From IMG/VR virus record IMGVR_UViG_2563366800_000003: a stretch of DNA of 19,093 nt; one strand, written 5' to 3'. Positions 1,021 to 15,080 of the stretch are shown one piece after another. This stretch comes from a virus (lineage: Duplodnaviria > Heunggongvirae > Uroviricota > Caudoviricetes). Under the pieces are notes generated by a model. It made no database searches, was not told where the DNA came from, and was given only the letters and a program-made list of their open reading frames with translations. Numbering within the stretch: the first letter of the stretch is position 1; each line of letters opens with the position of its first letter. The position numbers and the translations under genes are program-made.

Positions 1021-1066
1021 ATTCGTAATGCGAAGGTCGTAGGTTCGACTCCTATTATCGGCACCA
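1021..1066 (+). other. 46-nt 3' portion of tRNA-Thr(CGU) (thrW-type) without its 5' half; attachment-site core of the downstream integrative element
   Basis: ATTCGTAATGCGAAGGTCGTAGGTTCGACTCCTATTATCGGCACCA matches my recollection of the E. coli thrW 3' end (anticodon CGT, T-arm GGTTCGACTCC, acceptor TATCGGC + CCA). The preceding 30 nt do not form the matching 5' acceptor/D-arm (GCCGATA…), so this is not an intact tRNA gene. Confidence 0.7.
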
Positions 1067-1083
1067 TTCAAACATCTCCCCAA

Positions 1084-1165
1084 GTCTACTAAAGTCTTTC
1101 AAAACCCCTTATAATCCGCGTATTAAAGCCCCGTTCGTCTTTTGACGTCTACTAAAGTCCCTCAA
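1084..1165 (+). repeat. Two direct copies of GTCTACTAAAGTC(Y)(Y)TCAAAA (1084-1102 and 1147-1165) between the att core and int
   Basis: Seen directly in the sequence, 63 bp apart; the position fits accessory-factor or arm-type binding sites of an attP-derived region (inference). Confidence 0.45.
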
Positions 1166-1178
1166 AATCTACGGTCAG

Positions 1179-1231
1179 ATGGGGGTACTTATGGGGGTAT
1201 TTGCTGTTCGGTTTAGTGGAGGTACCCCCAA
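1179..1231. promoter_or_regulatory. Three TGGGGGTA motifs (two direct at 1180-1187 and 1192-1199, one inverted at 1223-1230) immediately upstream of int; candidate arm-type integrase binding sites
   Basis: Seen directly; a near-identical ATGGGGGTACTT(T)TGGGGGTAT block recurs at 17693-17718 near the proposed right end. A GGAGG Shine-Dalgarno (1218-1222) for int lies within this region. Confidence 0.45.
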
Positions 1232-2446
1232 GTGAAACTCAATGCCCGTCAAATAGACACAGCCAAGCCAAAAGAGAAGGCTTACAAGCTGGCCGATGGT
1301 GGCGGTTTGTATCTCTTGGTAAAACCTAATGGAGGTAAATACTGGCGACTTAAATATCGTGTAGCTGGTAAAGAGAAGCTATTGGCACTAGGTGTGTATC
1401 CTGAGGTTACTCTAGCCGATGCTCGGGCAAAACGTGAAGATGCGAAAAGAGGTATCGCTGGTGGTATCGATCCGATGGAAGCGAAACGAGAGGAAAAGAT
1501 TGCCCGGGAAACGCAGTTAAACAACACCTTCAAAGATATTGCCCTTGAGTGGCACAGCAGCAAATTAAAAAAATGGTCTGCTGGTTATGCTTCAGACATC
1601 CTCGAAGCCTTCAACAAAGATGTGTTCCCTTACATTGGCAAAAAACCAATCGCCGAAATCAAACCACTTGAACTTCTGAATGTGCTGCGGCGCATCGAGG
1701 GGCGCGGTGCTACAGAAAAAGCCAAAAAAGTGAGGCAGCGGTGCGGGGAAGTTTTCCGCTATGCAATAGTCACTGGTCGCGCAGAGTATAACCCTGCACC
1801 AGACCTTACTAGCGCGATGCAAGGCCATGAATCTAATCATTACCCTTTCCTTACAGCCAAAGAATTACCTGATTTTTTCAAGGCATTGTCCAGTTACTCA
1901 GGAAGCGCATTGGTTGTTATGGCGGCTCGTCTACTGATTATCACCGGCTTGCGGACTGGCGAACTACGTGGCGCATTATGGGATGAAATTGATTTCAACA
2001 AGGCTATCTGGGAGATACCCGCTTCACGTATGAAAATGCGGCGGCCTCATATTGTGCCATTGTCTGAGCAGGCTCTTTCGCTTATTGGGAAGATTAGAGA
2101 AATAACAGGCAATTACCCTCTTATGTTTCCCGGGCGCAATGATCCAAGGAAAACAATGAGCGAGGCCAGCATAAACCAAGTGTTTAAGCGCATTGGCTAC
2201 GCTGGACGTGTAACTGGTCATGGGTTCCGGCACACTATGAGTACGATTTTGCATGAGCAGGGCTATAACACCGCGTGGATAGAAACGCAGCTCGCTCACG
2301 TTGATAAGAACTCAATTCGTGGCACATACAACCATGCGCAATATCTGGATGGAAGGCGGGAGATGCTTCAATGGTATGCCGACTATATGGATTCTCTCGA
2401 GCATGGCGGAAATGTGGTGCATATGGTGTTTGAAAAACACGCATGA
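1232..2446 (+). CDS. int: P4-family tyrosine integrase (site-specific recombinase, phage integrase family)
   Basis: 404-aa ORF with GTG start 9 nt after GGAGG; N-terminal arm-binding-type region (LNARQIDTAKPKEKAYKLADGGGLYLLVKPNGGKYWRLKYR), catalytic-domain signatures HGFRHT and C-terminal RGTYNHAQYLDGRREMLQWYADYM typical of CP4-57 IntA/P4 Int relatives; sits directly next to a tRNA 3' fragment. Confidence 0.9.
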   Translation: MKLNARQIDTAKPKEKAYKLADGGGLYLLVKPNGGKYWRLKYRVAGKEKLLALGVYPEVTLADARAKREDAKRGIAGGIDPMEAKREEKIARETQLNNTFKDIALEWHSSKLKKWSAGYASDILEAFNKDVFPYIGKKPIAEIKPLELLNVLRRIEGRGATEKAKKVRQRCGEVFRYAIVTGRAEYNPAPDLTSAMQGHESNHYPFLTAKELPDFFKALSSYSGSALVVMAARLLIITGLRTGELRGALWDEIDFNKAIWEIPASRMKMRRPHIVPLSEQALSLIGKIREITGNYPLMFPGRNDPRKTMSEASINQVFKRIGYAGRVTGHGFRHTMSTILHEQGYNTAWIETQLAHVDKNSIRGTYNHAQYLDGRREMLQWYADYMDSLEHGGNVVHMVFEKHA

Positions 2447-2716
2447 AACAACTGGACAAGTATACAGAGGTTTACTAAAGTATAGGGGAGTAGATTGATA
2501 AAAACTCACAGAGGATTGCTATTTAACAGTTAGCCCTGGAGAAGGGCAATCGCTCTTTTATAAACGAAGGTGTATTGAGCCTTCTACGTCGCTGACAAAG
2601 CGGAATGTTCTTTAAAACTACTGGATGTCACGCCTAATAGCGTGATCCTGCCGAAATGCAGGGTAGCTCTACCCTTGTGGAGCAAACAAACCAAAACAAT
2701 CTGACTATCTTTTATA

Positions 2717-2751
2717 AAAGACCGCAATATGTTTTTCATATTGTGGTCTTT
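2717..2751. promoter_or_regulatory. Imperfect 15-bp inverted repeat (AAAGACCGCAATATG-TTTTT-CATATTGTGGTCTTT) in the AT-rich int-alpA intergenic region; candidate operator or terminator
   Basis: Seen directly; one mismatch in the stem; lies ~90 bp upstream of the alpA start. Confidence 0.3.
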
Positions 2752-2837
2752 GGCGTATTCGGCATTTGACGCAAATAAAACTCTCGCCATTCGTTGCAGG
2801 AGGGGGTTATTGCGTCATTAGTACAGGATATTAATAA

Positions 2838-3041
2838 ATGGCTAATTACAATTCATTAATTCGTCTCTCTGAAGTTCAAAGGCGAACTGGTTATAGCAAA
2901 GCATGGATTTATCGTCTTATTAGTCAGGGGAGGTTCCCTAAACAGGTAAAAATTGGAAGTCGGGCAATTGCTTTTGTTGAGTCTGAAATAGATGAATGGA
3001 TTGAGAAGTGTATATTAGAATCTAGAGACGAGATGGCCTGA
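2838..3041 (+). CDS. alpA: AlpA-family phage transcriptional regulator/excisionase-like DNA-binding protein
   Basis: 67-aa ORF RLSEVQRRTGYSKAWIYRLISQGRFPKQVKIGSRAIAFVESEIDEWI matches the AlpA helix-turn-helix pattern; position directly after int is typical of P4-like/PICI elements. Confidence 0.85.
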   Translation: MANYNSLIRLSEVQRRTGYSKAWIYRLISQGRFPKQVKIGSRAIAFVESEIDEWIEKCILESRDEMA

Positions 3042-3472
3042 TGGAAAAGAAAAACCGCCCATTACAGGCGGCTAATTCAGATATTCGTGTATCTGATGTT
3101 ACGCCCCTTACAAAATCCCTTCAAGCACCAAAGCGCACACCGAAAAAGCATCGTGCCAGAGTCTATATGCTGCGTACTGGTATAGAGGGATGGACAGAAA
3201 ATGACATTCTTCGCTACTGCCGTCTGTCTTCTGGTCGTAACTATGCAACAGAGTTAGAACGCCAGCTTGGAATCACTCTGGAGCGTATCGACGAAAAGAA
3301 TCCTGATGGTATCGGAACACACCTTCGCTACCGTTTCTCCTGCCGTGGTGATGTTCTGAAAGTGATCACTCATATTAACCATCTTGCGAACATAAATGAT
3401 CACAACGGACTTTCTCAGCAGGAAATTGCCGACATTCTGAAACTCTACCCGGACGCGTTTAACGCCGCCTAA
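3041..3472 (+). CDS. Hypothetical protein (143 aa), translationally coupled to alpA (TGATG overlap)
   Basis: ORF with start overlapping the alpA stop; no family recognised. Confidence 0.55.
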   Translation: MEKKNRPLQAANSDIRVSDVTPLTKSLQAPKRTPKKHRARVYMLRTGIEGWTENDILRYCRLSSGRNYATELERQLGITLERIDEKNPDGIGTHLRYRFSCRGDVLKVITHINHLANINDHNGLSQQEIADILKLYPDAFNAA

Positions 3473-3484
3473 CGGAGACTGAAA

Positions 3485-4318
3485 ATGAACATCGAAAAAA
3501 GCAGATTAATTTCTGAGGCTGCCCCTCATCTGAACGCCTCTCTGGGCACAATTAACGGTAATGAATTTGCCGCAATTGTCCCGGTTATTCCTGGTCATAT
3601 CGGTGGGCGTGAAACCAATATTGTTAGCGCAAAAGCGTTACACAAAGCGTTGGGCGTGGGAAAAGACTTCTCTACATGGATCACTGATCGCATCTCTGAA
3701 TATGACTTCACCATTGGGCACGATTACTCAGTCCATAAAACAATTTCCCCAAATTTGGGGAAAAGCCCGAATGGCGCGGCTTACAGCAAGATTAAGCAGT
3801 CTGGCAGACCCGGCAAAGACTATCTGTTAAGTGTCGGAATGGCGAAAGAACTGGCAATGATCGAACGCAATGATCAGGGTCGCGCTATCCGTCGTTATTT
3901 CATCCAGTGCGAGGAAGAATTACAGCGTAGCGTGCCTGAAATCGCCGCCCGCTATCGTCGCCAGCTAAAAGCCCGTATTAGTGCCGCAAACAACTTTAAG
4001 CCAATGTGCGATGCGCTGAATATGGCCCGTGCCGAGCAGGGGAAAACGACGCAGCAACACCACTACACAAACGAGAGCAATATGATTTCTCGTATCGTTC
4101 TTGGTGGGCTAACTGCTAAGCAGTGGGCGCGGATAAATGGCTATTCTGGCGAACCTCGCGACCATATGAACGCAGAACAGCTTGAGCACCTCTCATATCT
4201 CGAAAGCACCAATATCACGTTAATTGATATGGGCATGGAATATGAGCAGCGCAAAGGAGAACTCACCCGCTTGTCGCAACGCTGGCTCGCCAAGCGTCTG
4301 GAGGCGGTCCATGTTTAA
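3485..4318 (+). CDS. Phage antirepressor-like protein with AntA/AntB-type N-terminal domain
   Basis: 277-aa ORF; VSAKALHKALGVGKDFSTWITDRISEYDFTIGHDY fits the AntA/AntB antirepressor domain pattern (V.A..LH..L.....F..W...RI..Y.F....DY). Confidence 0.65.
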   Translation: MNIEKSRLISEAAPHLNASLGTINGNEFAAIVPVIPGHIGGRETNIVSAKALHKALGVGKDFSTWITDRISEYDFTIGHDYSVHKTISPNLGKSPNGAAYSKIKQSGRPGKDYLLSVGMAKELAMIERNDQGRAIRRYFIQCEEELQRSVPEIAARYRRQLKARISAANNFKPMCDALNMARAEQGKTTQQHHYTNESNMISRIVLGGLTAKQWARINGYSGEPRDHMNAEQLEHLSYLESTNITLIDMGMEYEQRKGELTRLSQRWLAKRLEAVHV

Positions 4319-4493
4319 GCCGACAGGAACACCACAACCTCAAAAACGCTACAAAGATGCCCACGGAGCACTCGTTACTGTCGAAAGCGTGTCTCACAAC
4401 CGAGTGACGTTTTATCGCGACGGGTATCAATCGCCATGCGTACAACCGCTGGCACGTTTCATGAAGGAGTTCGCGGAGGTTAACAAATGCTAA
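4311..4493 (+). CDS. Small hypothetical protein (60 aa), ATG overlapping the stop of the preceding gene
   Basis: ATGTTTAA overlap at 4311-4318; [60 protein letters not shown]; the track shows a longer frame from 4224 but coupling favours 4311. Confidence 0.4.
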   Translation: MFKPTGTPQPQKRYKDAHGALVTVESVSHNRVTFYRDGYQSPCVQPLARFMKEFAEVNKC

Positions 4494-5554
4494 CCGCCCA
4501 GAAGAAGATATTTTCACTGGCTGGTATGTCGCCAAAATCCAGCAATATGACAGCAAAGTCAGACATTAATACAGCAGATACAAGCAAAGTTTATCATTTT
4601 CTGGTGGTAGGAGCGGATGCCTTAACTATGTCAGAAATTACGGTCGATGGTGTTAGCGTTGAGAAGGTCAGCGGCTATGCCAGAGAATTTCTGGTCGTAG
4701 ATGGCTTTCTCTGCTCGTGTAGTGACTCCACAAAAACCTTCGTCCACGCGCGTGACGTTAACGAAATGAGCGCGATGTACTGTGCTTCTGGTTCTTCCAA
4801 TAGTGAGTTTTCGGAGTCCATAAAAAAGAGCTTGCCGTTATGCGGCAACACGGTTTATGGTTATAAGGCACCTCATAAAACGGGTGCCGGGATTGGCGTC
4901 CTGAAAATTCTGAAGGCGACATATGACGCGCCGAGCGTCTTTTTTTATGTCGTAGGTCTGACTCACCCATTTTTTGGGCGTTGGTGTATAATCCAGCGCC
5001 TTTGTCAATCAATGGTGGCTCAGGCGGGGGCTTCTTCGGAAGCGCCGGTATCCTTCAGAGCCGGTTACGCCAACCCTGTCTGGGCTACCACCAGCGAAAT
5101 TGGCGTTTCCGGTGGTAGCGTAACCTGCTATCTGAAGGAGGCTGCCACATGCTGGCTACTACCCCTACCCAAAAAACGCAATTTATCTGGATTATCGCCG
5201 CAGTTCGCCGCGATTGCCCGACAATTACCGCCAAAATTCATCATATTGCTGCCGAGTCTGAACGCGATGCTCGCCGTTCTCTGGTGCGCGATCACATCTG
5301 CTTTTTTGCTGGTCGTATCCGCATGGAGGTGGCACATGATTAAAACCTACGATGTGCATATGGATCCCCTCGAACGCACAAGCCAGATCATCACACTGAC
5401 AGAAGTGATTAACGACATTCTGGTGAGCAACTCTCCCTCACGAGACGAAAAACTGAAGGCGTTACTCGCGATATTGGACCTCGCCGTTCGTGACGTTCAT
5501 TTCCTGCTGGAAGGTGGACAAATGCCATGCAAAACGGGGGCAACCAATGAATAA
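4487..5554 (+). CDS. Uninterrupted 355-codon ORF, probably composite: plausible N-terminal ~145-aa hypothetical protein and a separate C-terminal small gene (5336-5554, 72 aa, GGAGG RBS) joined by low-quality run-on
   Basis: Good RBS (GGAGG, 4475-4479) before the ATG at 4487; the middle of the frame contains a terminator-like hairpin plus T-run (~4925-4946), a TATAAT-like hexamer (~4985-4990), and a W/C-rich improbable translation; a second gene with a strong RBS occupies another frame at 5149-5343. Confidence 0.35.
5149..5343 (+). CDS. Small hypothetical protein (64 aa)
   Basis: AAGGAGG 8 nt upstream of the ATG at 5149; its stop overlaps the next ATG (ATGATTAA at 5336-5343), indicating translational coupling. 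Confidence 0.45.
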   Translation: MLATTPTQKTQFIWIIAAVRRDCPTITAKIHHIAAESERDARRSLVRDHICFFAGRIRMEVAHD

Positions 5555-5741
5555 CTCAATTAATACCCCTCGCCTTACGTCCGCACTTCAATTAATCGAG
5601 CAAGCAGCGGCTGTCCCGGTTGCTGTCAGTCTTTCGGCTGAAGAAATGGACGCTGCTGATGTCGTGGATGCGATTAAAGCGTGCTCATCTTTGGTTAACG
5701 ATGCCCGTGCCGAGCTGGTAATTCTTGGGGGTGAAAAATGA
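5547..5741 (+). CDS. Small hypothetical protein (64 aa; track ORF 5490-5741 with internal start at 5547)
   Basis: ATGAATAA overlap with the upstream frame stop at 5552-5554 and a G-rich RBS; [64 protein letters not shown]. Confidence 0.5.
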   Translation: MNNSINTPRLTSALQLIEQAAAVPVAVSLSAEEMDAADVVDAIKACSSLVNDARAELVILGGEK

Positions 5742-6001
5742 ATATCAACTTAATTTATCGTCATCCGTGTGAGCTGGAAATTGAATCATTGCTGGGGCGC
5801 GAAGAGCCATATCCAGACACATTCACTCCCGCAGATTGCGCGACTGAACGGCTTACCAGAGCGCGCACAGGTCTGGTTCATGTGATGAATGAGATTGTTC
5901 CCTCGGTGGGAGGGGAACAGGCGACAGTAATCAATAGCTGGCTACAAAAAGTTACCTCCCTGATAGATATCGGTTTAATCGATGTGGAGAGTGCGAAATG
6001 A
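5738..6001 (+). CDS. Hypothetical protein (87 aa), ATGA-coupled
   Basis: Start overlaps the upstream stop (ATGA at 5738-5741); no family recognised. Confidence 0.55.
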   Translation: MNINLIYRHPCELEIESLLGREEPYPDTFTPADCATERLTRARTGLVHVMNEIVPSVGGEQATVINSWLQKVTSLIDIGLIDVESAK

Positions 6002-6219
6002 CCAACATCCAGCTCATTGAAGCGCAATGTCGCATCGAACAGGTTCAGACTGTTTTAGGGTTCTGGCTTGAAGGGGCCAGCCCCAGCAACAGAGACAAGT
6101 TAATGATTGGCGCGGTTATGTCACTGCTCAATGGCGTACCAGAAGCTATTCAGGAAGCGGACGAATTGTTGGGCAAATATGAGTTACAGAATCATTCAGG
6201 CGAGGCGAAACATGAATAA
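5998..6219 (+). CDS. Hypothetical protein (73 aa), ATGA-coupled
   Basis: Start overlaps the upstream stop (ATGA at 5998-6001); no family recognised. Confidence 0.55.
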   Translation: MTNIQLIEAQCRIEQVQTVLGFWLEGASPSNRDKLMIGAVMSLLNGVPEAIQEADELLGKYELQNHSGEAKHE

Positions 6220-6814
6220 TTTCTTAACTTTCCATGCAGAAGCAACGCCTGACGGCGTAAACATCATGTACCGCAGCAACGATGGCATGACAGAACGCGT
6301 TGATACCGTCTCATATATTGATGCCGTAAATCGTCTGGATGCCGGGGATTATGACGATAAACCAGATGAAGGCATGTTTATACATCTCGCTATTGCCAGT
6401 GGCGGCAACCAGGGATATTTCGATTACACATCACAGCATCACGTGATTATGTGGCGCTGGCTGATAGCAACAGCATTCATCAATGAAATGAGAAAGGAAA
6501 ACGGCACCGTCAGCATTATTGATGACAGTGGCAATCATTCCGTGGTTTCTGTTTATTCCAATGGCATCGTCGCCATGCCGCTGTATCCAGTAGCAGAGCG
6601 CCTCGCTATGGCAAACAACATTGAGGGCGCAATGATCGAGAAATATGGTGTTGATGTCGGAACAAATAATGCCATCATTTTTTACAGCAACATGTTCGAT
6701 GTCGAACAGGGAACACTCACTTCGTTTGGGCGAGAAGTGCTTGCCGATCTTCACAACAGCTTTATTGCCGAACTAAACGAAAACGGCATCCCAGAAGCAC
6801 CAGTGACGCACTAA
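6212..6814 (+). CDS. Hypothetical protein (200 aa; track ORF 6107-6814 with probable start at 6212)
   Basis: ATG at 6212 is preceded by GAGG and overlaps the upstream stop (ATGAATAA); begins MNNFLTFHAEATPDGV…; no family recognised. Confidence 0.6.
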   Translation: MNNFLTFHAEATPDGVNIMYRSNDGMTERVDTVSYIDAVNRLDAGDYDDKPDEGMFIHLAIASGGNQGYFDYTSQHHVIMWRWLIATAFINEMRKENGTVSIIDDSGNHSVVSVYSNGIVAMPLYPVAERLAMANNIEGAMIEKYGVDVGTNNAIIFYSNMFDVEQGTLTSFGREVLADLHNSFIAELNENGIPEAPVTH

Positions 6815-6826
6815 ACGGGGGCCAGA

Positions 6827-9583
6827 ATGCGAAACATTGATCTTATCCGTCAGGTTATCAGTGCGTCTGAAAACAACTGGCCTCATGTGCTGGGCTGCCT
6901 GAACATAAATGTCCCTGACTCTCCGCGCCGTCATGCTCCCTGCCCTGCATGTGGGGGCAAAGATCGATTCCGGTTCGATGACAACGGGCGCGGTAGCTTC
7001 ATCTGTAATCAGTGCGGCGCTGGTGATGGGCTGGATTTAATTAAACGCGTAAATAACTGTGACACAACAGAGGCGGCGCTGCTTGCCGCTGATGTTCTGG
7101 GTATTGATTACCGGACAACGGAAACACCAGAAGCCACCAGCCAGAAACGGGAACAACTGGAAACCGAGCGCCAGCGACGCGAACAGGAGCGCCTGAAAAG
7201 GGCAGAGAAGGACGAACAACAAAGACGGGATACGTTTTCCCGTCAGTTTGATGACATGCGCAGAAAGGCTGTAAACGGCAAATCTGATTATCTGGTTGCG
7301 AAAGGGGTAGGTGATTTTACATTCCCAGTGTTGCCCGATGGATCTCTGTTGCTGGCGCTGGTGGATAAATCCGGCGCAGTCACAGCAGCACAGACTATTA
7401 CCTCACATGGTGAAAAAAGACTCCTGACAGGTTCAGCAAAGCGAGGGGCATATCACGCCATAAACGCACCAGAAACAACACAGAGCATCTTAATCGCAGA
7501 AGGGCTGGCAACGGCATTATCTGCCCATTTAATTCGTCCAGAATCGCTGACAGTGGCGGCGATTGATGCCGGGAACCTGTTATATGTCGCCCAGGTACTG
7601 CGGGATAAATTTCCTTCAGCACAAATCATCATTGCTGCGGATAACGACCACAGCGAAGGAAGACAAAACACGGGGAGAATAGCAGCAGAAAAAGCAGCTT
7701 TATCTGTTTCTGGATGGGTGGCATTACCCCCGACAGATCACAAAGCAGACTGGAATGATTACCACCAAAAACACGGCATTAAATGCGCCACAGAAGCGTT
7801 CAATAAGTCAATGTACCAACCACAGGGTAATGGCGTGAAACAGCAGCCACAGACCATTGAGGGAAGCGATTTTAAGGTTATGGATACCGACCCACTGAAA
7901 CCAAGAATAGAAAGCCGCGAGGATGGTATTTATTGGGTATCTCCGAGAGCTGACAGCCAGAGTGGAGAAATCATCAATAACGAAAGCTGGTTATGTTCTC
8001 CGTTAAGCGTTATCGGTACTGGCAGAGACGATAAAGACCAGTATCTCATTCTTCGCTGGCTGTCGTTTGGTTCTGAAACGCCGACAACCGCTGCCATTCC
8101 ACTGGCTGATATTGGTGAACGTGAAGGATGGCGCACACTTAAAGCTGGTGGGGTAAATGTCACGACCAAAAGCAGCCTCAGAGCAATACTGGCAGACTGG
8201 CTACAACGCAGTGGCTCTCGTGAATTGTGGCGTGTTGCTCATGCCACTGGCTGGCAATGCGGAGCGTACATCATGCCTGATGGGGAAATCATCGGAACAC
8301 CTGAAAATCCTGTGCTGTTCAGCGGGAGAAGCTCAGCCGCAGCCGGATATACCGTCTCAGGGAGCGCGAAAAGCTGGCGTGATAACGTGGCGCGTCTGGC
8401 CTTTGGTAACTATTCAATGATGACCGGGATCGGCGCAGCACTGGCAGCGCCATTGATTGGGCTGGTGGGCGCTGACGGGTTCGGCATTCATTTCTATGAG
8501 CAGTCGAGCGCAGGTAAGACCACCACGGCAAACGTGGCGAGCAGCTTATACGGCAACCCTGATTTATTGCGGCTGACGTGGTACGGAACCGCGCTGGGGC
8601 TGGCAAATGAAGCCGCCGCCCACAATGACGGACTAATACCGCTTGATGAAGTTGGTCAGGGCGCTGATCCTGTCAGTGTTTCACAGTCTGCCTATGCGTT
8701 ATTTAACGGTGTAGGGAAACTGCAAGGCGCTAAAGATGGTGGAAACCGGGATCTAAAACGCTGGCGTACAGTGGCAATCAGCACTGGAGAAATGGATTTA
8801 GAAACATTTATCGCTACTTCCGGGCGAAAAACCAAAGCCGGGCAACTGGTGCGACTGCTGAATATTCCGTTGAGTAAAGCAGTACGCTTTCACGATTACC
8901 AGAACGGAAAACAGCACGCAGACGCACTGAAAGACGCTTACCAGCATCACCACGGCGCAGCCGGGCGTGAGTGGATTAAATGGCTGGCAGACCACCAGCA
9001 ACAGGCAATTAAAACTGTTCGTGACTGCGAAAGCAGATGGAGAAGTCTGATCCCATCCGATTATGGTGAGCAGGTTCACCGTGTAGCCGCGCGATTTGCC
9101 ATTCTGGAGGCCGCATTGCTGTTAGGCGAGGTTGTAACAGGCTGGGATGCTCAGACATGCCGTGATGCGATACAGCACAGCTATAACGCATGGTTGCGCG
9201 AGTTCGGCACAGGTAACAAAGAACATCAGCAGATTATTGAACAAACGGAGGCATTTCTTAATGCCTATGGGCTTAGCCGTTTTGCACCATTTCCATACAG
9301 CCCGGCAGATTTGCCCATCAAAGATTTGGCCGGATACCGTCAGCGTGGAGAACATGACGAAAGCCCAATGATTTTCTACACATTCCCGGCCACATTTGAA
9401 AAGGAGATCGCATGTGGTTTCAACGCAAAACAGTTTGCTGAAGTGTTGAAAAAAGCCGGGATGCTAACCCCACCAAACAGCGGTCGTGGATACCAAAGAA
9501 AATCACCACGTATTCAGGGACGACAAATAAACGTTTATGTACTCAATTACCAGCCAGGAGATTATAACTCATCTGAAGAATGA
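6827..9583 (+). CDS. Primase-helicase replication protein (zinc-binding N-terminus, Toprim primase domain, C-terminal P-loop NTPase/DUF927-like domain), P4 alpha/PICI Pri-Rep type
   Basis: 918-aa ORF; CxxC…CxxC zinc ribbon (CPACGGKDRF…FICNQCGAG); Toprim signature (ILIAEGLATA … IIIAADNDHSEGRQ); P-loop-like SAGKTT with downstream hydrophobic-DE Walker B (GLIPLDEVGQ); iteron array immediately 3'. Confidence 0.9.
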   Translation: MRNIDLIRQVISASENNWPHVLGCLNINVPDSPRRHAPCPACGGKDRFRFDDNGRGSFICNQCGAGDGLDLIKRVNNCDTTEAALLAADVLGIDYRTTETPEATSQKREQLETERQRREQERLKRAEKDEQQRRDTFSRQFDDMRRKAVNGKSDYLVAKGVGDFTFPVLPDGSLLLALVDKSGAVTAAQTITSHGEKRLLTGSAKRGAYHAINAPETTQSILIAEGLATALSAHLIRPESLTVAAIDAGNLLYVAQVLRDKFPSAQIIIAADNDHSEGRQNTGRIAAEKAALSVSGWVALPPTDHKADWNDYHQKHGIKCATEAFNKSMYQPQGNGVKQQPQTIEGSDFKVMDTDPLKPRIESREDGIYWVSPRADSQSGEIINNESWLCSPLSVIGTGRDDKDQYLILRWLSFGSETPTTAAIPLADIGEREGWRTLKAGGVNVTTKSSLRAILADWLQRSGSRELWRVAHATGWQCGAYIMPDGEIIGTPENPVLFSGRSSAAAGYTVSGSAKSWRDNVARLAFGNYSMMTGIGAALAAPLIGLVGADGFGIHFYEQSSAGKTTTANVASSLYGNPDLLRLTWYGTALGLANEAAAHNDGLIPLDEVGQGADPVSVSQSAYALFNGVGKLQGAKDGGNRDLKRWRTVAISTGEMDLETFIATSGRKTKAGQLVRLLNIPLSKAVRFHDYQNGKQHADALKDAYQHHHGAAGREWIKWLADHQQQAIKTVRDCESRWRSLIPSDYGEQVHRVAARFAILEAALLLGEVVTGWDAQTCRDAIQHSYNAWLREFGTGNKEHQQIIEQTEAFLNAYGLSRFAPFPYSPADLPIKDLAGYRQRGEHDESPMIFYTFPATFEKEIACGFNAKQFAEVLKKAGMLTPPNSGRGYQRKSPRIQGRQINVYVLNYQPGDYNSSEE

Positions 9584-9607
9584 GCTTCTTCATGTGCGTA
9601 GAAAAGG

Positions 9608-9722
9608 TGTTGGTTCAGTTGGTTCAGTTGGTTCAATTTGTAAAGAGTATTGTTTTATAAGGATTTTATTCTTTTTATTGAACCAACACTGAACCAACAA
9701 CACGGTATTTTGAACCAACACA
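9608..9722. repeat. Iteron-type origin module: three tandem (G)TTGGTTCA repeats (9608-9637), a 41-bp AT-rich spacer, three inverted TGAACCAAC repeats (9679-9719)
   Basis: Seen directly; sits immediately downstream of the primase-helicase gene, the usual place for a satellite/plasmid ori; an inverted copy occurs at 15638-15762. Confidence 0.6.
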
Positions 9723-10040
9723 ATGTGACTGAATTGATGCGCACAACACCTGGCTGGCATCAGAGAGTGTTTTACGAGACTTTCGTAAAATCCTGTGTAC
9801 AAGGGCGTGACGTTTTTGAAAGTAAGCACTACGAAATTTTCGTAGTTCAAAAAACAGCCTTTGAGAAGTTGTTATGCCTGTTCAGCAAACCATCCGCATA
9901 GCTGATCGCGAATCAAATTACCAATGGAGCCAGAAGCAAGGGCAGAACTGGAAAGCGCCTGCCGTGAAGAGTAATGCGACACCATAAATATAGTTTTTAG
10001 AGTCCATAAAAAACCTGTCAAAACCTGACATACAGAACGA

Positions 10041-10072
10041 TGCCACCAGCTACTGAGTGGTGGCATTTTTTT
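10041..10072 (+). terminator. Rho-independent terminator (8-bp stem TGCCACCA/TGGTGGCA, 9-nt loop, 7 T's)
   Basis: Perfect stem and T-run seen directly at 10041-10072. Confidence 0.6.
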
Positions 10073-10128
10073 GTGCTATTTGTTTCATATTTTGCAATTA
10101 CGATGATGAATATTGCGATTTGTGAAAC

Positions 10129-10152
10129 TATAATAACTGTTGTTTTATACAG
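10129..10152 (+). promoter_or_regulatory. Candidate -10 hexamer TATAAT (10129-10134) followed by a LexA-box-like CTGT-N8-ACAG (10137-10152) upstream of the cargo operon
   Basis: aaCTGTtgttttatACAGtt fits the CTGT-N8-ACAG core of SOS boxes with a mostly AT spacer; flanking bases deviate from the TACTGT…ACAGTA consensus; no convincing -35. Confidence 0.35.
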
Positions 10153-10167
10153 TTCTAAGGGGGCGTT

Positions 10168-10341
10168 ATGGCTATTTCAGTAAAGCCAGTATTGATAAGT
10201 GAGAAGCAAATGGAAGCGATAAAGAAAATTCAGGAGGAGCAGCGTAAAAAATCAGAGGTAGGAGTTGCGCCAACGATCCACGAAATTGCTCGGGGATTAA
10301 TGGATAAGGCGCTGGCTTACACTTTAACTGGACGTGGGTAA
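10168..10341 (+). CDS. Small hypothetical protein (57 aa), first gene of the cargo operon; possibly a small DNA-binding or adaptor protein
   Basis: Strong RBS (AAGGGGGCG) before the ATG at 10168; [57 protein letters not shown]; below the 60-aa cut-off of the ORF track; its stop lies 4 nt before the next ATG. Confidence 0.5.
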
Positions 10342-10345
10342 ATCA

Positions 10346-11782
10346 ATGGCTACGTGGCAACAGGGTATTAATTCTGGTGGTTTTCTGGCTGGCATCGGTA
10401 CGCAAAATGAGAATGCGCCAAAGGCAAGCGACATTAACGCAACGCTTGGTCTGATCCGCGAAAACAATGAACTGGCTCGCTCAGGTGCAAATAACGTTGG
10501 TCTGACCGCGTTACGTGGTCTGGCTGGAGTTGCTGATATTTATAAGCAGCAGCAACAGCAGGAGCGTAAAGCGGCATTCCAGAAAGGTTATGCAGATGCT
10601 TATGCGTCCGGCGACAGGGAGCAGATGCGTAATCTTATTACAGCATTCCCAGAAGAGTTTGAGGAAGTCCGTAAAGGGATGAGTTATGTCGATGATGCTC
10701 AAAGGGATGATTATGGCAATCTGGCGCTCAAAGCACAGGTAGCCTCATCGCTTGGTCCGGGAGCATTTGGCAGGTTCATGATGGATAATGAGCAGGAGAT
10801 GCGTCGTTTAGGTATCCCTCCAGAAACTATTGCTGAAATGCAGGTTAATGACCCGCAGGGCTTCCAGCATTTCGCAGGTAATCTGGCGTTGTTTTCTCTC
10901 GGTCATGAGAAGTACTTCGATATCAAAGATCGAATGGAGGGTCGGGATATTGAGCGTGGCGAGTTGGCAGAGACGATTCGCAGCAATAAAGCTGGGGAAG
11001 GTTTACAGGCGCAAAGCATTGCTGTTAGCCGTGAAAACTCTCTGCGCACTGCTGGAGGTGCTGTTCCTGCATCTGTTAAAGAATATCAATATTTCAACAG
11101 CCTGTCTCCAGAGCAACAAAAGACATATCTTCGTGTTCGAGGCCGTCCTGCTGCTGGCGGGGAGAATGTTGTGCAACTGGCAGATGGTAGAACGGTAACG
11201 GTTGGTCGGAAGCTTCACGGCGCTGGTGCTAATGCGTTCTACGAAGGAATAGACAACGAGGGCAATATGATTCGCGTCCCCGCAAGTTCTATTGCTGCTC
11301 CGGCTACATCGGCAGCTAATGCGCAGAATTACGAAATGAAGAAAGATCTTGATGCAATTTCTGGCGCATCAATTGACGATCTTGGCTTCATGACAGGTAT
11401 TACAGGTTCTTCAGGTTCTTTTGCTCTTGGTGCAGATATTCGTAGCCGGGCATCTGGTGTTGAGGAGAGGAAACTATACAACGCTGCACAGCGAATCATG
11501 GGCAAAATGCAAAATCAGGGGATTGCGGCAGCCCGAGATATGGGGGCATCTGGCATCAACACCGAAGCAGAGGCCAATAGGTATTTTCAGGGTATGCCAA
11601 AGCCTGATTTCTCAAGCCCTGAAGCACTACAACAATCAATGCGCGACATTCAGCAATATACCGACAATTACAACCAGCAATATAACGTTAATGTTGGTAA
11701 ATCTCAGCGGCAGCAATCTCAACCTGCACAGGTATCACAGCCAGCAGCCAGCAGTAACTTTTCTTCACTATGGGGTGATTAA
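10346..11782 (+). CDS. Hypothetical protein (~478 aa; track frame opens at GTG 10334), low-complexity Gly/Ala/Gln-rich, predicted largely helical, no catalytic motif recognised
   Basis: Long ORF with consistent coding character; stop TAA overlaps the next start (TAATG at 11780-11784); N-terminal Gly-rich segment, Q-rich tail (…[19 protein letters not shown]). Confidence 0.8.
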
Positions 11783-13887
11783 TGGCTAAAGCATGGAAAG
11801 ATGTTATCGCTTCTCCACAGTATCAGGCGTTAGCACCAGAACAAAAAGCGCAGGCTCAGGAGCAATACTTCAATGAAGTCGTGGCCCCGCAAGCCGGAGA
11901 AAGTGTAGAGCAGGCTAAGCAGGCTTTTTATGCTGCCTATCCACTGCCATCAACGAATGAAATAGACCGATCCCAATCAGCAACTCAAAATATTCAACAT
12001 ACATCATCTGATAATTCTCTTGCGTCAGGGTATGCAAAGTTAGCTACTCAGCAAAGAGAGGGGCTTGAGCGTTCAGCAGAACAGGGAGCCAGTCTTGGGG
12101 CTGCGATGCGCGATGCTATAACAGGCGAAAGCCGAATGACTCCAGAGATGGAGAGACTGCAAAATGTCGCCTCTGCCCCAGAATTGAACTCACTAAGCAT
12201 GGATGCCTTAAAGGCTGGATGGTCTCAACTTTTCGGCTCTGACGCGTCTCAGGAAAAGATTCTTCAGGGAATGGGGGCGACATTAAGGCAGGATGAGAAG
12301 GGGAATACTATCGTTTCTCTGCCATCAGGTGATTATGCCCTAAACAAGCCGGGTTTATCACCGCAAGACCTGACTTCGTTTCTTGCTAATGCGTTGGCGT
12401 TTACACCAGCGGGCAGGGCTGGAACGGTGCTTGGTGCCATAGGAAAATCAGCAGCTACAGATTTAGCACTACAGGGAGCCACCAGCCTTGCTGGTGGAGA
12501 AGATATTGATCCGTTACAAACGGTAATTTCTGCTGGCATTGGTGGTATTGGTAAGGGGCTGGAAAATACAGCGAGTGCGGTTTCGAGGGCTGTTCGTGGT
12601 GATATGTCGCCTGAAGCAAAGGCTGCTGTCGACTTTGCATCGGAAAGAAATCTGCCGTTAATGACCAGTGACATGCTGAAAGATAAAACCTTTATGCAGA
12701 GTCAGGCTCAGACATTAGGCGAAAGACTTCCTTTTTTTGGAACCGGTAAGAACCGACTGAATCAACAACAAGCACGAGAAAATTTAGTCAGAACATTTAG
12801 CGATGGTCTGGGGGGAATTTCAGATAAACAGCTTTATGAGTCTGCGACTAAAGGGCAGCAAAAATTCATTGAGGCAGCAGGAAAGCGATATAACCGCATA
12901 ATTGACGCTATGGGGGATACCCCTGTCGATCTCTCAAACACGGTAAAAGCTATCGACAATCAGATTGCCGTGTTAAGCCGACCGGGCAAATCTCAGGATA
13001 GAGCCGCGGTAAAAGTCTTGCAGCAATTTAAAGACGATATCACCAGCGGACCCAATGACCTGCGTCTGGCGAGAGAAAACAGAACTGACCTTCGAAAGCG
13101 GTTCATGAATTCAAACGAGACTGTTGATAAAGACACGCTCCAGAAAGCCAGCGATATTGTCTACAAGGCATATACAGCGGATATGAAAAAAGCAGTATCC
13201 CAAAAACTAGGCTCAGAAGAAGCTACCAATATGTCTAGGGTTGATCGCTCATGGGCTAGATTCAATGACATGATGGGAAGAACGCGCGTTCAAAAGGCAA
13301 TAGCCAGCGGCAAGGCCACGCCTGAGGATGTAACAAAACTCGTTTTTAGCCAAAACCCATCAGAACGTTCTCAGCTTTACAGGCTTCTGGATGACAATGG
13401 TAGGCAAAACGCACGAGCCGCCATAGTTCAGAATGCTGTAGATAAGGCGACTGATCCGTCTGGAAATATCAGTGTTGAGAAGTTTATTAATGCGTTACAC
13501 CGGAACAGGAAGCAATCAGCAACTTTCTTTAAAGGCGTATATGGAAAGGAACTGGACGGCGTTATTAAATACCTCAATGATACAAGACACGCGGCAAAAG
13601 CGAACGTTCAAAACTTAAATGGTCAGCAGCTTTATGGATTGTTAGTTGGTGGTGGCATCATAAACGCAGCAGTATTAGCGGGGATGCTAAAAACGGCTGC
13701 GTTTGTTGTTCCTGCTGCTGGTGTCGTAGGCGGAGCAGCGAAGGCATACGAAAGCCCTGTTATACGAAATGCCTTGTTACGTCTGGCAAATACGCCAAAA
13801 GGTAGCACAGCATATGACAGAGCGATCAGTACGGTCACACAATCGCTCACCAGAGTCGCACAGGCATCACAAAAAGAATCTCAATAA
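11782..13887 (+). CDS. Hypothetical protein (701 aa), helical/low-complexity with a C-terminal Gly/Ala-rich hydrophobic hairpin (residues ~617-653); candidate membrane-inserting protein
   Basis: Translationally coupled to the upstream gene, GGGGTGA RBS; hydrophobic LYGLLVGGGIINAAVLAGMLKTAAFVVPAAGVVGGAA near the C-terminus; no nucleotide-binding or nuclease motif seen. Confidence 0.8.
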   Translation: MAKAWKDVIASPQYQALAPEQKAQAQEQYFNEVVAPQAGESVEQAKQAFYAAYPLPSTNEIDRSQSATQNIQHTSSDNSLASGYAKLATQQREGLERSAEQGASLGAAMRDAITGESRMTPEMERLQNVASAPELNSLSMDALKAGWSQLFGSDASQEKILQGMGATLRQDEKGNTIVSLPSGDYALNKPGLSPQDLTSFLANALAFTPAGRAGTVLGAIGKSAATDLALQGATSLAGGEDIDPLQTVISAGIGGIGKGLENTASAVSRAVRGDMSPEAKAAVDFASERNLPLMTSDMLKDKTFMQSQAQTLGERLPFFGTGKNRLNQQQARENLVRTFSDGLGGISDKQLYESATKGQQKFIEAAGKRYNRIIDAMGDTPVDLSNTVKAIDNQIAVLSRPGKSQDRAAVKVLQQFKDDITSGPNDLRLARENRTDLRKRFMNSNETVDKDTLQKASDIVYKAYTADMKKAVSQKLGSEEATNMSRVDRSWARFNDMMGRTRVQKAIASGKATPEDVTKLVFSQNPSERSQLYRLLDDNGRQNARAAIVQNAVDKATDPSGNISVEKFINALHRNRKQSATFFKGVYGKELDGVIKYLNDTRHAAKANVQNLNGQQLYGLLVGGGIINAAVLAGMLKTAAFVVPAAGVVGGAAKAYESPVIRNALLRLANTPKGSTAYDRAISTVTQSLTRVAQASQKESQ

Positions 13888-13891
13888 CTGG

Positions 13892-13916
13892 TTAGCCATG
13901 GATGGCTAATTTTTGT
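13892..13916 (+). terminator. Rho-independent terminator (TTAGCCA-TGGA-TGGCTAA followed by TTTTTGTTCTTT) ending the cargo operon; overlaps the 3' end of the convergent membrane-protein gene
   Basis: 7-bp stem, 4-nt loop, T-rich tail directly after the 701-aa stop codon. Confidence 0.5.
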
Positions 13917-14325
13917 TCTTTGCTCTCATCCATAGGTAAAGAAGGGAAAGAACAAGACAAAAAACAGAGAATAGATAACCTACCTCATATGGTGCGCCAA
14001 AAAAATTAGCTATTGATACGGGCAAAAAAGCTGAAGCGATCAAAATTGAAAGGCAAAAAATAAGCCCAGTAATATAGTTTATTAAATTCTTAAATGAGAA
14101 ACGTTTTGCTTGATTTACGGTCTTAACGAACGATCGCTTAACGACGGATAAAAGCAAATAGATGGCGACAGTTGCTAATACCCCTTTCCACCAGTCTGGA
14201 TATAGTTTTGCGACAATCAGACCAAGTAAAACCATGATGACAGCCTGAGCATTCACACCAACCCTCCCTTTAGCTTTGTTTAGAATGGCAATCATCATAT
14301 ATCCAAGACATGGCATTTGGTACAT
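13906..14325 (-). CDS. Small polytopic inner-membrane protein (predicted 4 TM helices; 139 aa from the first ATG, ~117 aa if the GTG at 14259 with GGGAGGG RBS is used), convergent to the cargo operon
   Basis: Hydrophobic segments VIMVLLGLIVAKLY, VLATVAIYLLLSVV, ITGLIFCLSILIASAFLPV, YLFSVFCLVLSLLYLWM; strongly AT-rich codon usage unlike its neighbours. Confidence 0.65.
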   Translation of the reverse strand: MYQMPCLGYMMIAILNKAKGRVGVNAQAVIMVLLGLIVAKLYPDWWKGVLATVAIYLLLSVVKRSFVKTVNQAKRFSFKNLINYITGLIFCLSILIASAFLPVSIANFFGAPYEVGYLFSVFCLVLSLLYLWMRAKNKN

Positions 14326-14443
14326 AGCTTGGGTCGGGATTTCAAATCCGCTCCCAGTTGATGGGGTCGTTACAGTACGCGCATATCCGCTTTATGTGAA
14401 ACAGGAAGATTTTTCTGATATCACTGCCACAGCAAAACACCAA

Positions 14444-14467
14444 TTTCGAGACAAGTACGCGCGCGAG
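14444..14467. repeat. Copy a of the TTTCG(A/G)GACAAGTACG(Y)GCGCG repeat family
   Basis: Seen directly; related copies at 14731-14758 and 16120-16150, shorter CAGTACGCGC/CAGTACGCAC variants at 14374-14384 and 14505-14518. Confidence 0.5.
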
Positions 14468-14730
14468 GGGTATCAGTTGCAAAATTTTTTGCAACTGCGT
14501 CCGACCAGTACGCACACGATGGCGGGGGATACCATGAAACTGTTCTCTACATAAGTCAGAGTGGTGGTGATGTGTTGATTATCGGCGTATATGCGCACAG
14601 GACGCGCTATGACAATGTTTTATGCGGGTACACCAATCACATGTATCTGGTGTGATAAATCGCGTTACATGACATCTCATGTTGTGCTGGTGGTTATCAC
14701 GACGTTCTGAATCTGGCTTTTGTCTGATAT

Positions 14731-14758
14731 TTTGCGACAAGTACGTGCGCGTAGCATC
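14731..14758. repeat. Copy b of the GACAAGTACG(Y)GCGCG(CG)TAGCA repeat family
   Basis: TTTGCGACAAGTACGTGCGCGTAGCATC; shares the upstream TCTGATAT motif with copy a. Confidence 0.5.
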
Positions 14759-14779
14759 GACAGCATACACATTGGATAT

Positions 14780-15001
14780 TCATTTTGTGACCAATGCGAT
14801 AAGTAGCGGGATAAGCATTGATAAAATCAACAGGCCGATGATCCACTTTTGATTTTCACTGGCCTTATCTCTATTTTCATCAATCTTATCAATAATTCGA
14901 CGCTCCAAGCCGTGCATATCACCGCGAATGGCAATCATCTCATTGCGAACATCCGAGAAGTGGTTGGCTTGATGTTCAATGTGTGGCGTTCTGCCTTTCA
15001 T
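14780..15001 (-). CDS. Small protein (73 aa) with charged helical N-terminus and a single C-terminal transmembrane anchor; XhlA-like architecture
   Basis: …DKIDENRDKASENQKWIIGLLILSMLIPLLIALVTK; GAGG 9 nt upstream of the ATG; family assignment is by architecture only. Confidence 0.5.
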   Translation of the reverse strand: MKGRTPHIEHQANHFSDVRNEMIAIRGDMHGLERRIIDKIDENRDKASENQKWIIGLLILSMLIPLLIALVTK

Positions 15002-15080
15002 TCCTGATCCTCACCTATCGTCACCACCTGCTGGTGTATAAAGGTATTGGCCCAAGCAGCTTTCCAATGGGCACTCATGT

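Follow-up and report, generated by a model that had tools for sequence, protein, structure and literature searches.

A four-helix membrane protein gene in the sieA slot of an EcCIMP1-like satellite: a candidate superinfection-exclusion gene unrelated to SieA

The DNA analyzed here, a stretch of 19,093 nucleotides that is called the window throughout, contains a small gene that converges on the gene of a 701-aa protein and encodes a predicted multi-pass membrane protein. This raises the question of what the small protein does and against which membrane-active partner, its own neighbor or an incoming one, it might act. An initial annotation had likened the gene both to immunity genes of pore-forming bacteriocins and to superinfection-exclusion genes. 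The features that are relevant for an answer are collected in Table 1.

Table 1. Features of the island, the ejection-protein operon and the membrane protein gene (positions in the window)
Feature	Position	Strand	Basis or remarks
EcCIMP1-like phage-inducible chromosomal island (PICI)	1050..17786		direct repeats of TCCTATTATC as bounds
P22 gp20-type ejection protein, 482 aa	10346..11782	+	Pfam PF16928 Inj_translocase E 3.3e-82; phrog_917
P22 gp16-type ejection (DNA transfer) protein, 701 aa	11782..13887	+	phrog_770 E 1.7e-163; BLASTP P22 gp16 E 3e-52
Hairpin 13890-13911 and T-run	13890..13921	+	terminator scan; folding energy -9.6 kcal/mol
CDS, 116-aa predicted four-helix membrane protein	13906..14256	-	GTG start 14256-14254, TAG stop 13908-13906
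5' leader and upstream region, common to all three slot alleles	14257..14760	-	blastn against sister islands, 96-97% identity
RBS GGGAGGG	14262..14268	-	5 nt 5' of GTG; read from sequence

The satellite and its ejection-protein genes

Judged by the features described for this type of island (PMC11773190), the window represents an EcCIMP1-like satellite: an integrase, AlpA, a TOPRIM/DUF927 primase, PerC and the att core were all found, and capsid and lysis genes were absent. EcCIMP1 is a PICI of E. coli that is mobilized by the P22-like phage Kapi1 (Pick et al. 2025, PMC11773190). The att core TCCTATTATC is present at 1050-1059 and 17777-17786 (0.01 matches expected by chance) and is identical to the core reported for EcCIMP1 (PMC11773190). 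The island genes encode the integrase, an AlpA-like HTH protein, an antirepressor, Ash, the TOPRIM/DUF927 primase, a gp20-gp16 module, the membrane protein, and PerC. The window and EcCIMP1 are 95-99% identical over 1021-10316, 14331-14760 and 15659-17794, so that att core, integrase, AlpA, antirepressor, Ash, primase and PerC form a common backbone, and P22-type 'DNA transfer' genes occupy the same place in both. However, the ejection-protein modules differ: that of EcCIMP1 consists of gp14, gp7, gp20 and a 906-aa transglycosylase-type gp16, whereas the window has gp20 and gp16 only, and the EcCIMP1 gp16 gene is adjoined by the gene of a 232-aa lipoprotein instead of the gene with four transmembrane (TM) segments. 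Islands that cover at least 80% of the window were found in 47 complete E. coli genomes.

The flanks outside of the att repeats (1-1020 and 17811-19093) differ from the thrW surroundings of both EcCIMP1 and strain TUM9803, and thus the island has a different or rearranged neighborhood in its source genome. The window is devoid of a tRNA gene, and part of it is repeated in nearly all E. coli genomes. Two clusters (9602-9722 and 15634-15766) contain six TTGGTTCA units each, three per strand, which amounts to 12 copies compared with 0.8 expected by chance. The first cluster begins 19 nt past the primase stop codon, the two clusters are inverted copies of one another (55 nt at 95% identity), and together they enclose the complete cargo, which extends from gp20 to the gene of a 151-aa protein, an arrangement that is also present in EcCIMP1. 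The clusters look like replication-origin iterons of the island that were duplicated around the cargo.

Satellites of the EcCIMP1 type encode their own P22-type ejection proteins, as is seen in the window (10168-13887) and in two further loci (L014, 4146-8982; L015, 12598-17944). Some islands have the order gp14-gp7-gp20-gp16, and in the window gp20-gp16 follow a conserved ORF of 53-57 aa. When the literature was searched for satellites with ejection-protein genes, only the EcCIMP1 paper was retrieved. The 482-aa gene is annotated as 'phage DNA ejection protein' in RefSeq. The 701-aa ORF is intact, yet RefSeq calls it a pseudogene ('missing C-terminus') in several genomes, likely because the last ~100 residues are outside of the annotation model. 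The 701-aa gp16 has a hydrophobic G/A-rich C-terminal segment, and within this segment G614 and K637 align with G532 and P546 of P22 gp16, sites at which mutations allow escape from SieA (PMC10883804). A gp16-type protein is the presumed type of target of the small membrane protein.

The gene, its start codon and its predicted product

The ORF list contains a minus-strand ORF of 13906..14325, and the initial annotation had left open whether translation starts at an ATG (14325) or at a GTG that was placed at 14259 and is preceded by the GGGAGGG motif. The GTG and its RBS have stood, with the correct position being 14256-14254, whereas the ATG and the position 14259 have not. The 5'-ends of six loci from three genera, comprising E. 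coli islands, E. coli prophages, a Yersinia prophage and an Edwardsiella island, were aligned at the DNA level. GGAGG, the spacer and the GTG were invariant, conservation began at the RBS, and the sequences further upstream were unrelated between the contexts. In sister islands that carry another gene behind the same gp16, the homology to the window picked up again at 14251-14253 (blastn). The onset of conservation at the RBS and these cassette breakpoints identify GTG 14256 as the real start. The reading 'MYQMPCLGYMMIAILNKAKGRVG' 5' of the GTG is leader and not protein, because unrelated alleles have the same apparent N-terminal extension. ATG 14325 and ATG 14295 were rejected as starts on account of the onset of conservation at the RBS, the occurrence of the same extension in unrelated alleles, and the signal peptide of a secreted allele, which starts at the GTG. 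The product thus comprises 116 aa instead of the 117-139 aa assumed initially.

Is this ORF a gene at all? It might have arisen by chance in an AT-rich spacer and have no function, and the lack of both a promoter consensus and a database family would be compatible with such an origin. However, its length is exactly 116 codons in E. coli, Edwardsiella and Yersinia, dN/dS was 0.12-0.54 in every diverged pair, with 0.12-0.21 in the comparison with the Yersinia orthologue (dS ~1.0-1.3), the RBS and start are invariant, the ORF is present in 229 of 5426 complete E. coli genomes, and diverged family members retain the four-helix layout. The conservation pattern effectively refutes a chance origin, which we regard as extremely improbable, and indicates that the gene is real and subject to purifying selection. 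RefSeq lists its product as a hypothetical protein, and no paper describing it was retrieved by a literature search. As noted in the initial annotation, the gene is more AT-rich than its neighbors: the GC content of 13906-14262 is 37.3%, compared with a window mean of 47.8% (sd 4.4%, 357-nt windows), and only 1.5% of the 357-nt windows have a GC content as low. The different origin that had been proposed for the gene is supported as well, albeit mainly by the cassette breakpoints and less by base composition.

The four predicted TM helices of the initial annotation were found by both approaches that were used. Hydropathy revealed four TM-like segments, and AlphaFold yielded four helices comprising residues 3-18, 22-50, 55-85 and 90-115, with a mean pLDDT of 74.6 when an alignment of 12 sequences was used; an earlier run with eight sequences had a pLDDT of 56 and was unusable. 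Six K/R residues are located in the central loop and three at the C-terminus, and application of the positive-inside rule predicts that both termini are cytoplasmic. This topology would leave PDWWKG and SIANFFGAPYEVGY as short periplasmic loops. The two predicted periplasmic loops, PDWWKG and FFGAPYEVGY, are short, conserved and aromatic. The most conserved part of the family is TM1 together with the first periplasmic turn, LGLIVAKLYP, which is invariant or nearly so, whatever gp16 variant adjoins the gene. The second periplasmic loop is also among the most conserved features in close relatives.

SieA proteins fall into types A, B and C and are represented by Pfam PF26849 and phrog_7745 (Leavitt et al. 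2024, PMC10883804). Membership of the 116-aa protein was analyzed with the precomputed Pfam column and with phrog_7745 including positive controls, the local Pfam set being without PF26849 and PF26808. The Pfam column listed PF26849 for relatives of SieA and '-' throughout the family of the 116-aa protein. The 116-aa protein did not match phrog_7745, while P22 SieA (3.7e-108), HS1 SieA (6.5e-21) and a SieA-like allele from a sister island (4.4e-4) did. BLASTP gave E values of 0.9 with P22 SieA and of 28 with HS1 SieA, the hhalign probability against SieA was 0.4%, and neither the 116-aa sequence nor any other family member contains FxRYPxEAxxFNK, the conserved C-terminal cytoplasmic motif of SieA. 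Searches of Pfam, PHROGs, NCBIfam and PADLOC gave no useful match, and Pfam and NCBIfam gave no match to an immunity family above noise; PDB sequence profiles gave no useful match either, and the best Foldseek hit in BFVD and PDB had an E value of 0.5 and a TM-score below 0.45. On these sequence and profile comparisons, the protein is not a member of the SieA family, and a SieA-like action can be ascribed to it by inference only.

The sieA slot and its exchangeable genes

In P22, gene 16 ends at 4880, and sieA (4903-5397) lies on the opposite strand in convergent orientation, 22 nt on. The membrane protein gene has the equivalent position, with a gp16 end at 13887 and a gene stop at 13906, and the family has the SieA-type location between homologs of gene 16 and gene 9, convergent with gene 16. 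The initial annotation had described transcription towards the 701-aa gene and a terminator hairpin shared by both genes. Orientation and hairpin were confirmed: the gap between the two genes is 18 nt, and the 3' arm of the hairpin extends over the final codon and the stop codon of the membrane protein gene. However, a canonical U-tract is present for the plus strand transcript only, and hairpin and T-run are the terminator of the gp20-gp16 operon. It was the only terminator-like site found in the scan, and its stem core AGCC...GGCT is conserved across the aligned family loci.

The family is small. Searching 5.8 billion proteins yielded 22 clusters, an HMM search of 1.84 billion representative proteins retrieved only 12 proteins, with SieA absent among the matches, and tblastn with three family members against 50,697 phage records gave no match. 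Named members are from E. coli, Salmonella, Edwardsiella and Yersinia. In P22-like prophages of E. coli and Yersinia, some of which are complete, the gene is located between gene 16 and the tailspike gene; other family loci are primase islands. The co-occurrence of the two genes, which the initial annotation had put forward as a check, was found from one side. In 32 of 33 fetched loci with a family member, the gp16 C-terminus converged on it within ~18-37 nt, and the exception was a decayed island in O111:H8 strains, which has lost gp16 and retained an intact membrane protein gene. From the other side, the gene adjoins this gp16 3'-end in 192 of its 229 E. coli genomes, but ~224 further genomes have the same gp16 3'-end without similarity to the gene beside it. 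Members with only 28-44% identity also adjoin a gp16-type gene, and two diverged members adjoin Arc/antirepressor genes, as in the immI region of P22. Every member with a sequenced neighbor is paired with one gp16 subtype, which is at least 61% identical in the C-terminus.

The ~224 further genomes made it possible to define what is exchanged. Their similarity to the window breaks off at 13905-13907, inside the hairpin, which thus forms the left breakpoint of the cassette. Pairwise blastn revealed that in sister islands with the same gp16 only 13906/8-14250/52 is replaced, a segment that corresponds to the ORF from just past the shared GTG start through the stop codon. Three unrelated envelope proteins thus occur beside a single type of gp16 (92-98% DNA identity), and they have a common RBS, GTG start, upstream region and terminator hairpin. 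The first replacement, found in 103 of 5426 complete E. coli genomes, encodes a 204-aa multi-pass protein, in which the SieA motif is present as NRYPGEARRARK (RYPGEA). It matched P22 SieA (E 8e-8), the type B SieA of HS1 (E 2e-9), which is experimentally validated, and phrog_7745 'SieA-like' (E 4e-4), and is, by these similarities, a true SieA homolog. In the sister island of strain MS1494 the gene is located at 3858-4472 (L016), and its product is 34% identical to HS1 SieA. The second replacement, found in 126 of the 5426 genomes, encodes a secreted periplasmic protein of ~131 aa, the signal peptide of which starts at the shared GTG. All slot alleles are AT-rich relative to the adjoining gene 16; the GC content is 37% for the membrane protein gene, 33.5% for P22 sieA and 36% for HS1 sieA, each beside a gene 16 of 47-50% GC. 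The gene of the 116-aa protein is an exact allelic alternative to a true SieA homolog.

How specific is this slot for exclusion functions? The region from gene 16 to the tailspike gene also carries a ClpP-like protease, a peptidase, the YafO toxin and Abi_2, and is a general accessory-gene slot of P22-like phages, so that position alone does not fix the function. P22-like prophages and their satellites could thus carry the 116-aa protein as an accessory ('moron') membrane protein with another role. It might be an effector of abortive infection or a modifier of the envelope or of stress, or it might exclude another type of phage or exclude phages at another step. The diversity of the cargo, the lack of a match to any characterized family, and the occurrence of a functionally uncharacterized secreted protein as another slot allele are in line with such a role. 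This explanation does not account well for the exact swap with a true SieA homolog, from just past the start codon through the stop codon and with the same expression signals, nor for the tight and constant linkage to the gp16 3'-end across genera, down to ~30% identity. We consider it rather unlikely, while keeping it as a serious alternative.

The exchange also bears on the analogy with bacteriocins. Like the immunity proteins of pore-forming colicins, the 116-aa protein is a small multi-pass, predicted inner-membrane protein encoded on the opposite strand right after the gene of a membrane-inserting protein, and the hydrophobic G/A-rich C-terminal segment of gp16 would suit a colicin-like pair, in which the small protein shields the producing cell from the membrane-inserting gp16 of its own element. 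However, a cognate immunity protein would be expected to co-vary with its toxin, and this was not observed: the same gp16 type has three unrelated partners, one of which is periplasmic, the slot is empty in many P22-like phages, and the membrane protein gene is intact where gp16 was lost. Furthermore, no homology to colicin immunity proteins was found. Cognate immunity is thus not supported and appears highly improbable, and the bacteriocin half of the initial analogy was dropped. The other half, superinfection exclusion, was retained and has strong support from the genomic context: the P22-type gp20 and gp16 genes, the sieA slot and the allelism with a SieA homolog.

Several further features of the exchanged region and its surroundings were recorded. 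The upstream region that is common to the three alleles is in part (14331-14760) also conserved in EcCIMP1. A promoter consensus scan upstream of the membrane protein gene found no consensus sigma-70 promoter, and Rfam gave no match in or near the gene. A 430-nt spacer upstream of the gene, conserved in all islands including EcCIMP1, contains a near-perfect palindrome (14473-14497, CAGTTGCAAAA-AA-TTTTGCAACTG; folding energy -15.1 kcal/mol) that has no U-tract on either strand and could be an operator. A 23-nt direct repeat is present at 14443-14465 and 14729-14751. A 92-aa ORF on the plus strand (14276-14554) is divergent from the membrane protein gene; some genomes have an annotated hypothetical protein that corresponds to a longer form of this ORF (L017, 4327-4698), and others are without this annotation. 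Further upstream, on the same strand as the membrane protein gene, follow the genes of a 73-aa protein with a C-terminal hydrophobic anchor (14780-15001; phrog_6324, a family of unknown function) and of the 151-aa protein (15081-15536; phrog_30270 at E 3e-4), the N-terminus of which is ribbon-helix-helix-like by eye. This layout resembles mnt-orf59a-sieA of P22.

Just upstream of the slot, sister islands carry an Abi family gene: 14760-15126, the region of the 73-aa gene in the window, is replaced by an Abi_2 gene (compared with L002, 8161-9567), and an Abi_2 gene is nearby in the Edwardsiella island, too. The stretch between the exclusion slot and PerC thus behaves as a variable defense hotspot. 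In strain TUM9803 (L026), an island with ~99% identity and a complete P22-like prophage are arranged in tandem at thrW. The tailspike gene of this prophage directly follows gene 16, and its sieA slot is empty. The satellite may thus make up for an exclusion function that is missing from its probable helper. In EcCIMP1, the slot gene (L015, 11749-12447) is co-directional with gp16 and encodes the predicted 232-aa lipoprotein (MIKNLLLILSLSLLAGC...), which has no PHROG family and is a candidate for the superinfection immunity of EcCIMP1.

A proposed role in superinfection exclusion

Taking these results together, we lean, with somewhat more confidence than doubt, towards a function of the 116-aa protein in superinfection exclusion, by an action analogous to that of SieA, to which it is unrelated, at the gp20/gp16 conduit. 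The precise swap with a true SieA homolog that uses the same expression signals points to interchangeable function, and the persistence of an intact gene in decayed islands without gp16 is as expected for a function that protects the host. According to this proposal, the protein would be expressed from the resident island or prophage and would sit in the inner membrane, with TM1 and the first periplasmic turn as well as the second periplasmic loop facing the side from which gp16 arrives. It would interfere with the trans-envelope conduit of gp20 and gp16 where gp16 enters the inner membrane and would keep the conduit of the incoming phage from opening this membrane. Incoming P22-like phages, and the transducing particles made by them, would thereby be stopped from completing DNA injection. 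Of these points, the membrane localization, the exclusion phenotype and the target are inferred, and it is an assumption, as the promoter consensus scan was empty, that the gene is expressed without induction.

Exclusion might also be indirect. Mutations that permit escape from SieA affect the C-terminal portions of gp16 and gp20, and both a direct contact with gp16/gp20 and the occlusion of a host factor, with YajC having been raised, were kept open as modes of SieA action by Leavitt et al. (PMC10883804). Likewise, the 116-aa protein could mask or alter a host inner-membrane factor that is needed by the conduit, without contacting gp16 or gp20. A common host component would make the occurrence of three unrelated proteins in one slot easier to explain, and it would fit that TM1 and LGLIVAKLYP are the most conserved part irrespective of the adjoining gp16 variant. 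Nevertheless, the map positions of the SieA escape mutations argue against it, and the pairing of the family with one gp16 subtype could reflect specificity. An indirect mode is, in our view, improbable.

The proposed conduit blocker and SieA have several traits in common: both are encoded by small AT-rich genes for multi-pass membrane proteins that converge with gene 16, ~20 nt from its stop, and are carried by P22-like prophages. SieA is an integral inner-membrane protein with 3-4 transmembrane segments; for the 116-aa protein, four TM-like segments and a positive-inside pattern are predicted. In contrast, there is no detectable sequence or profile similarity between the two, the 116-aa protein is without the motif FxRYPxEAxxFNK, and it is predicted to consist of four tightly packed helices without a long loop and is shorter than SieA (162-212 aa). 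T4 Imm and HK97 gp15 are other small prophage- or phage-encoded inner-membrane proteins that stop DNA entry, and they act on different groups of phages. No PHROG, BFVD or PDB match links the 116-aa protein to them.

Every sieA locus that was examined in detail by Leavitt et al. belongs to a P22-like prophage (PMC10883804), and the presence of SieA-family genes in satellites as well as in P22-like prophages extends this published distribution. EcCIMP1 confers additional superinfection immunity against its P22-like helper and has no known defense system (Pick et al. 2025, PMC11773190); the slot alleles are concrete candidate genes for the immunity reported for satellites of this type, although the slot of EcCIMP1 itself, for which the immunity was measured, holds the lipoprotein gene. 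The exchange itself is an unusually clean, ORF-precise cassette exchange between unrelated envelope proteins, and a second, unrelated protein in the same slot and with the same signals offers a separate way to study the step at which podovirus DNA injection is vulnerable. It is conceivable, though we hold this wider claim only tentatively, that the 116-aa protein is the first member of a new class of P22-type gp20/gp16 conduit blockers without relationship to SieA, and that the islands carry an exchangeable exclusion slot. If this is true, a four-TM protein, a SieA homolog and a secreted protein are swapped ORF-for-ORF beside the ejection genes of a satellite, and the slot would be an arms-race module at the injection step that could explain satellite-mediated superinfection immunity. 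With alleles in 229, 103 and 126 of 5426 complete genomes, the slot may shape how susceptible natural populations of E. coli are to P22-like phages and to transduction.
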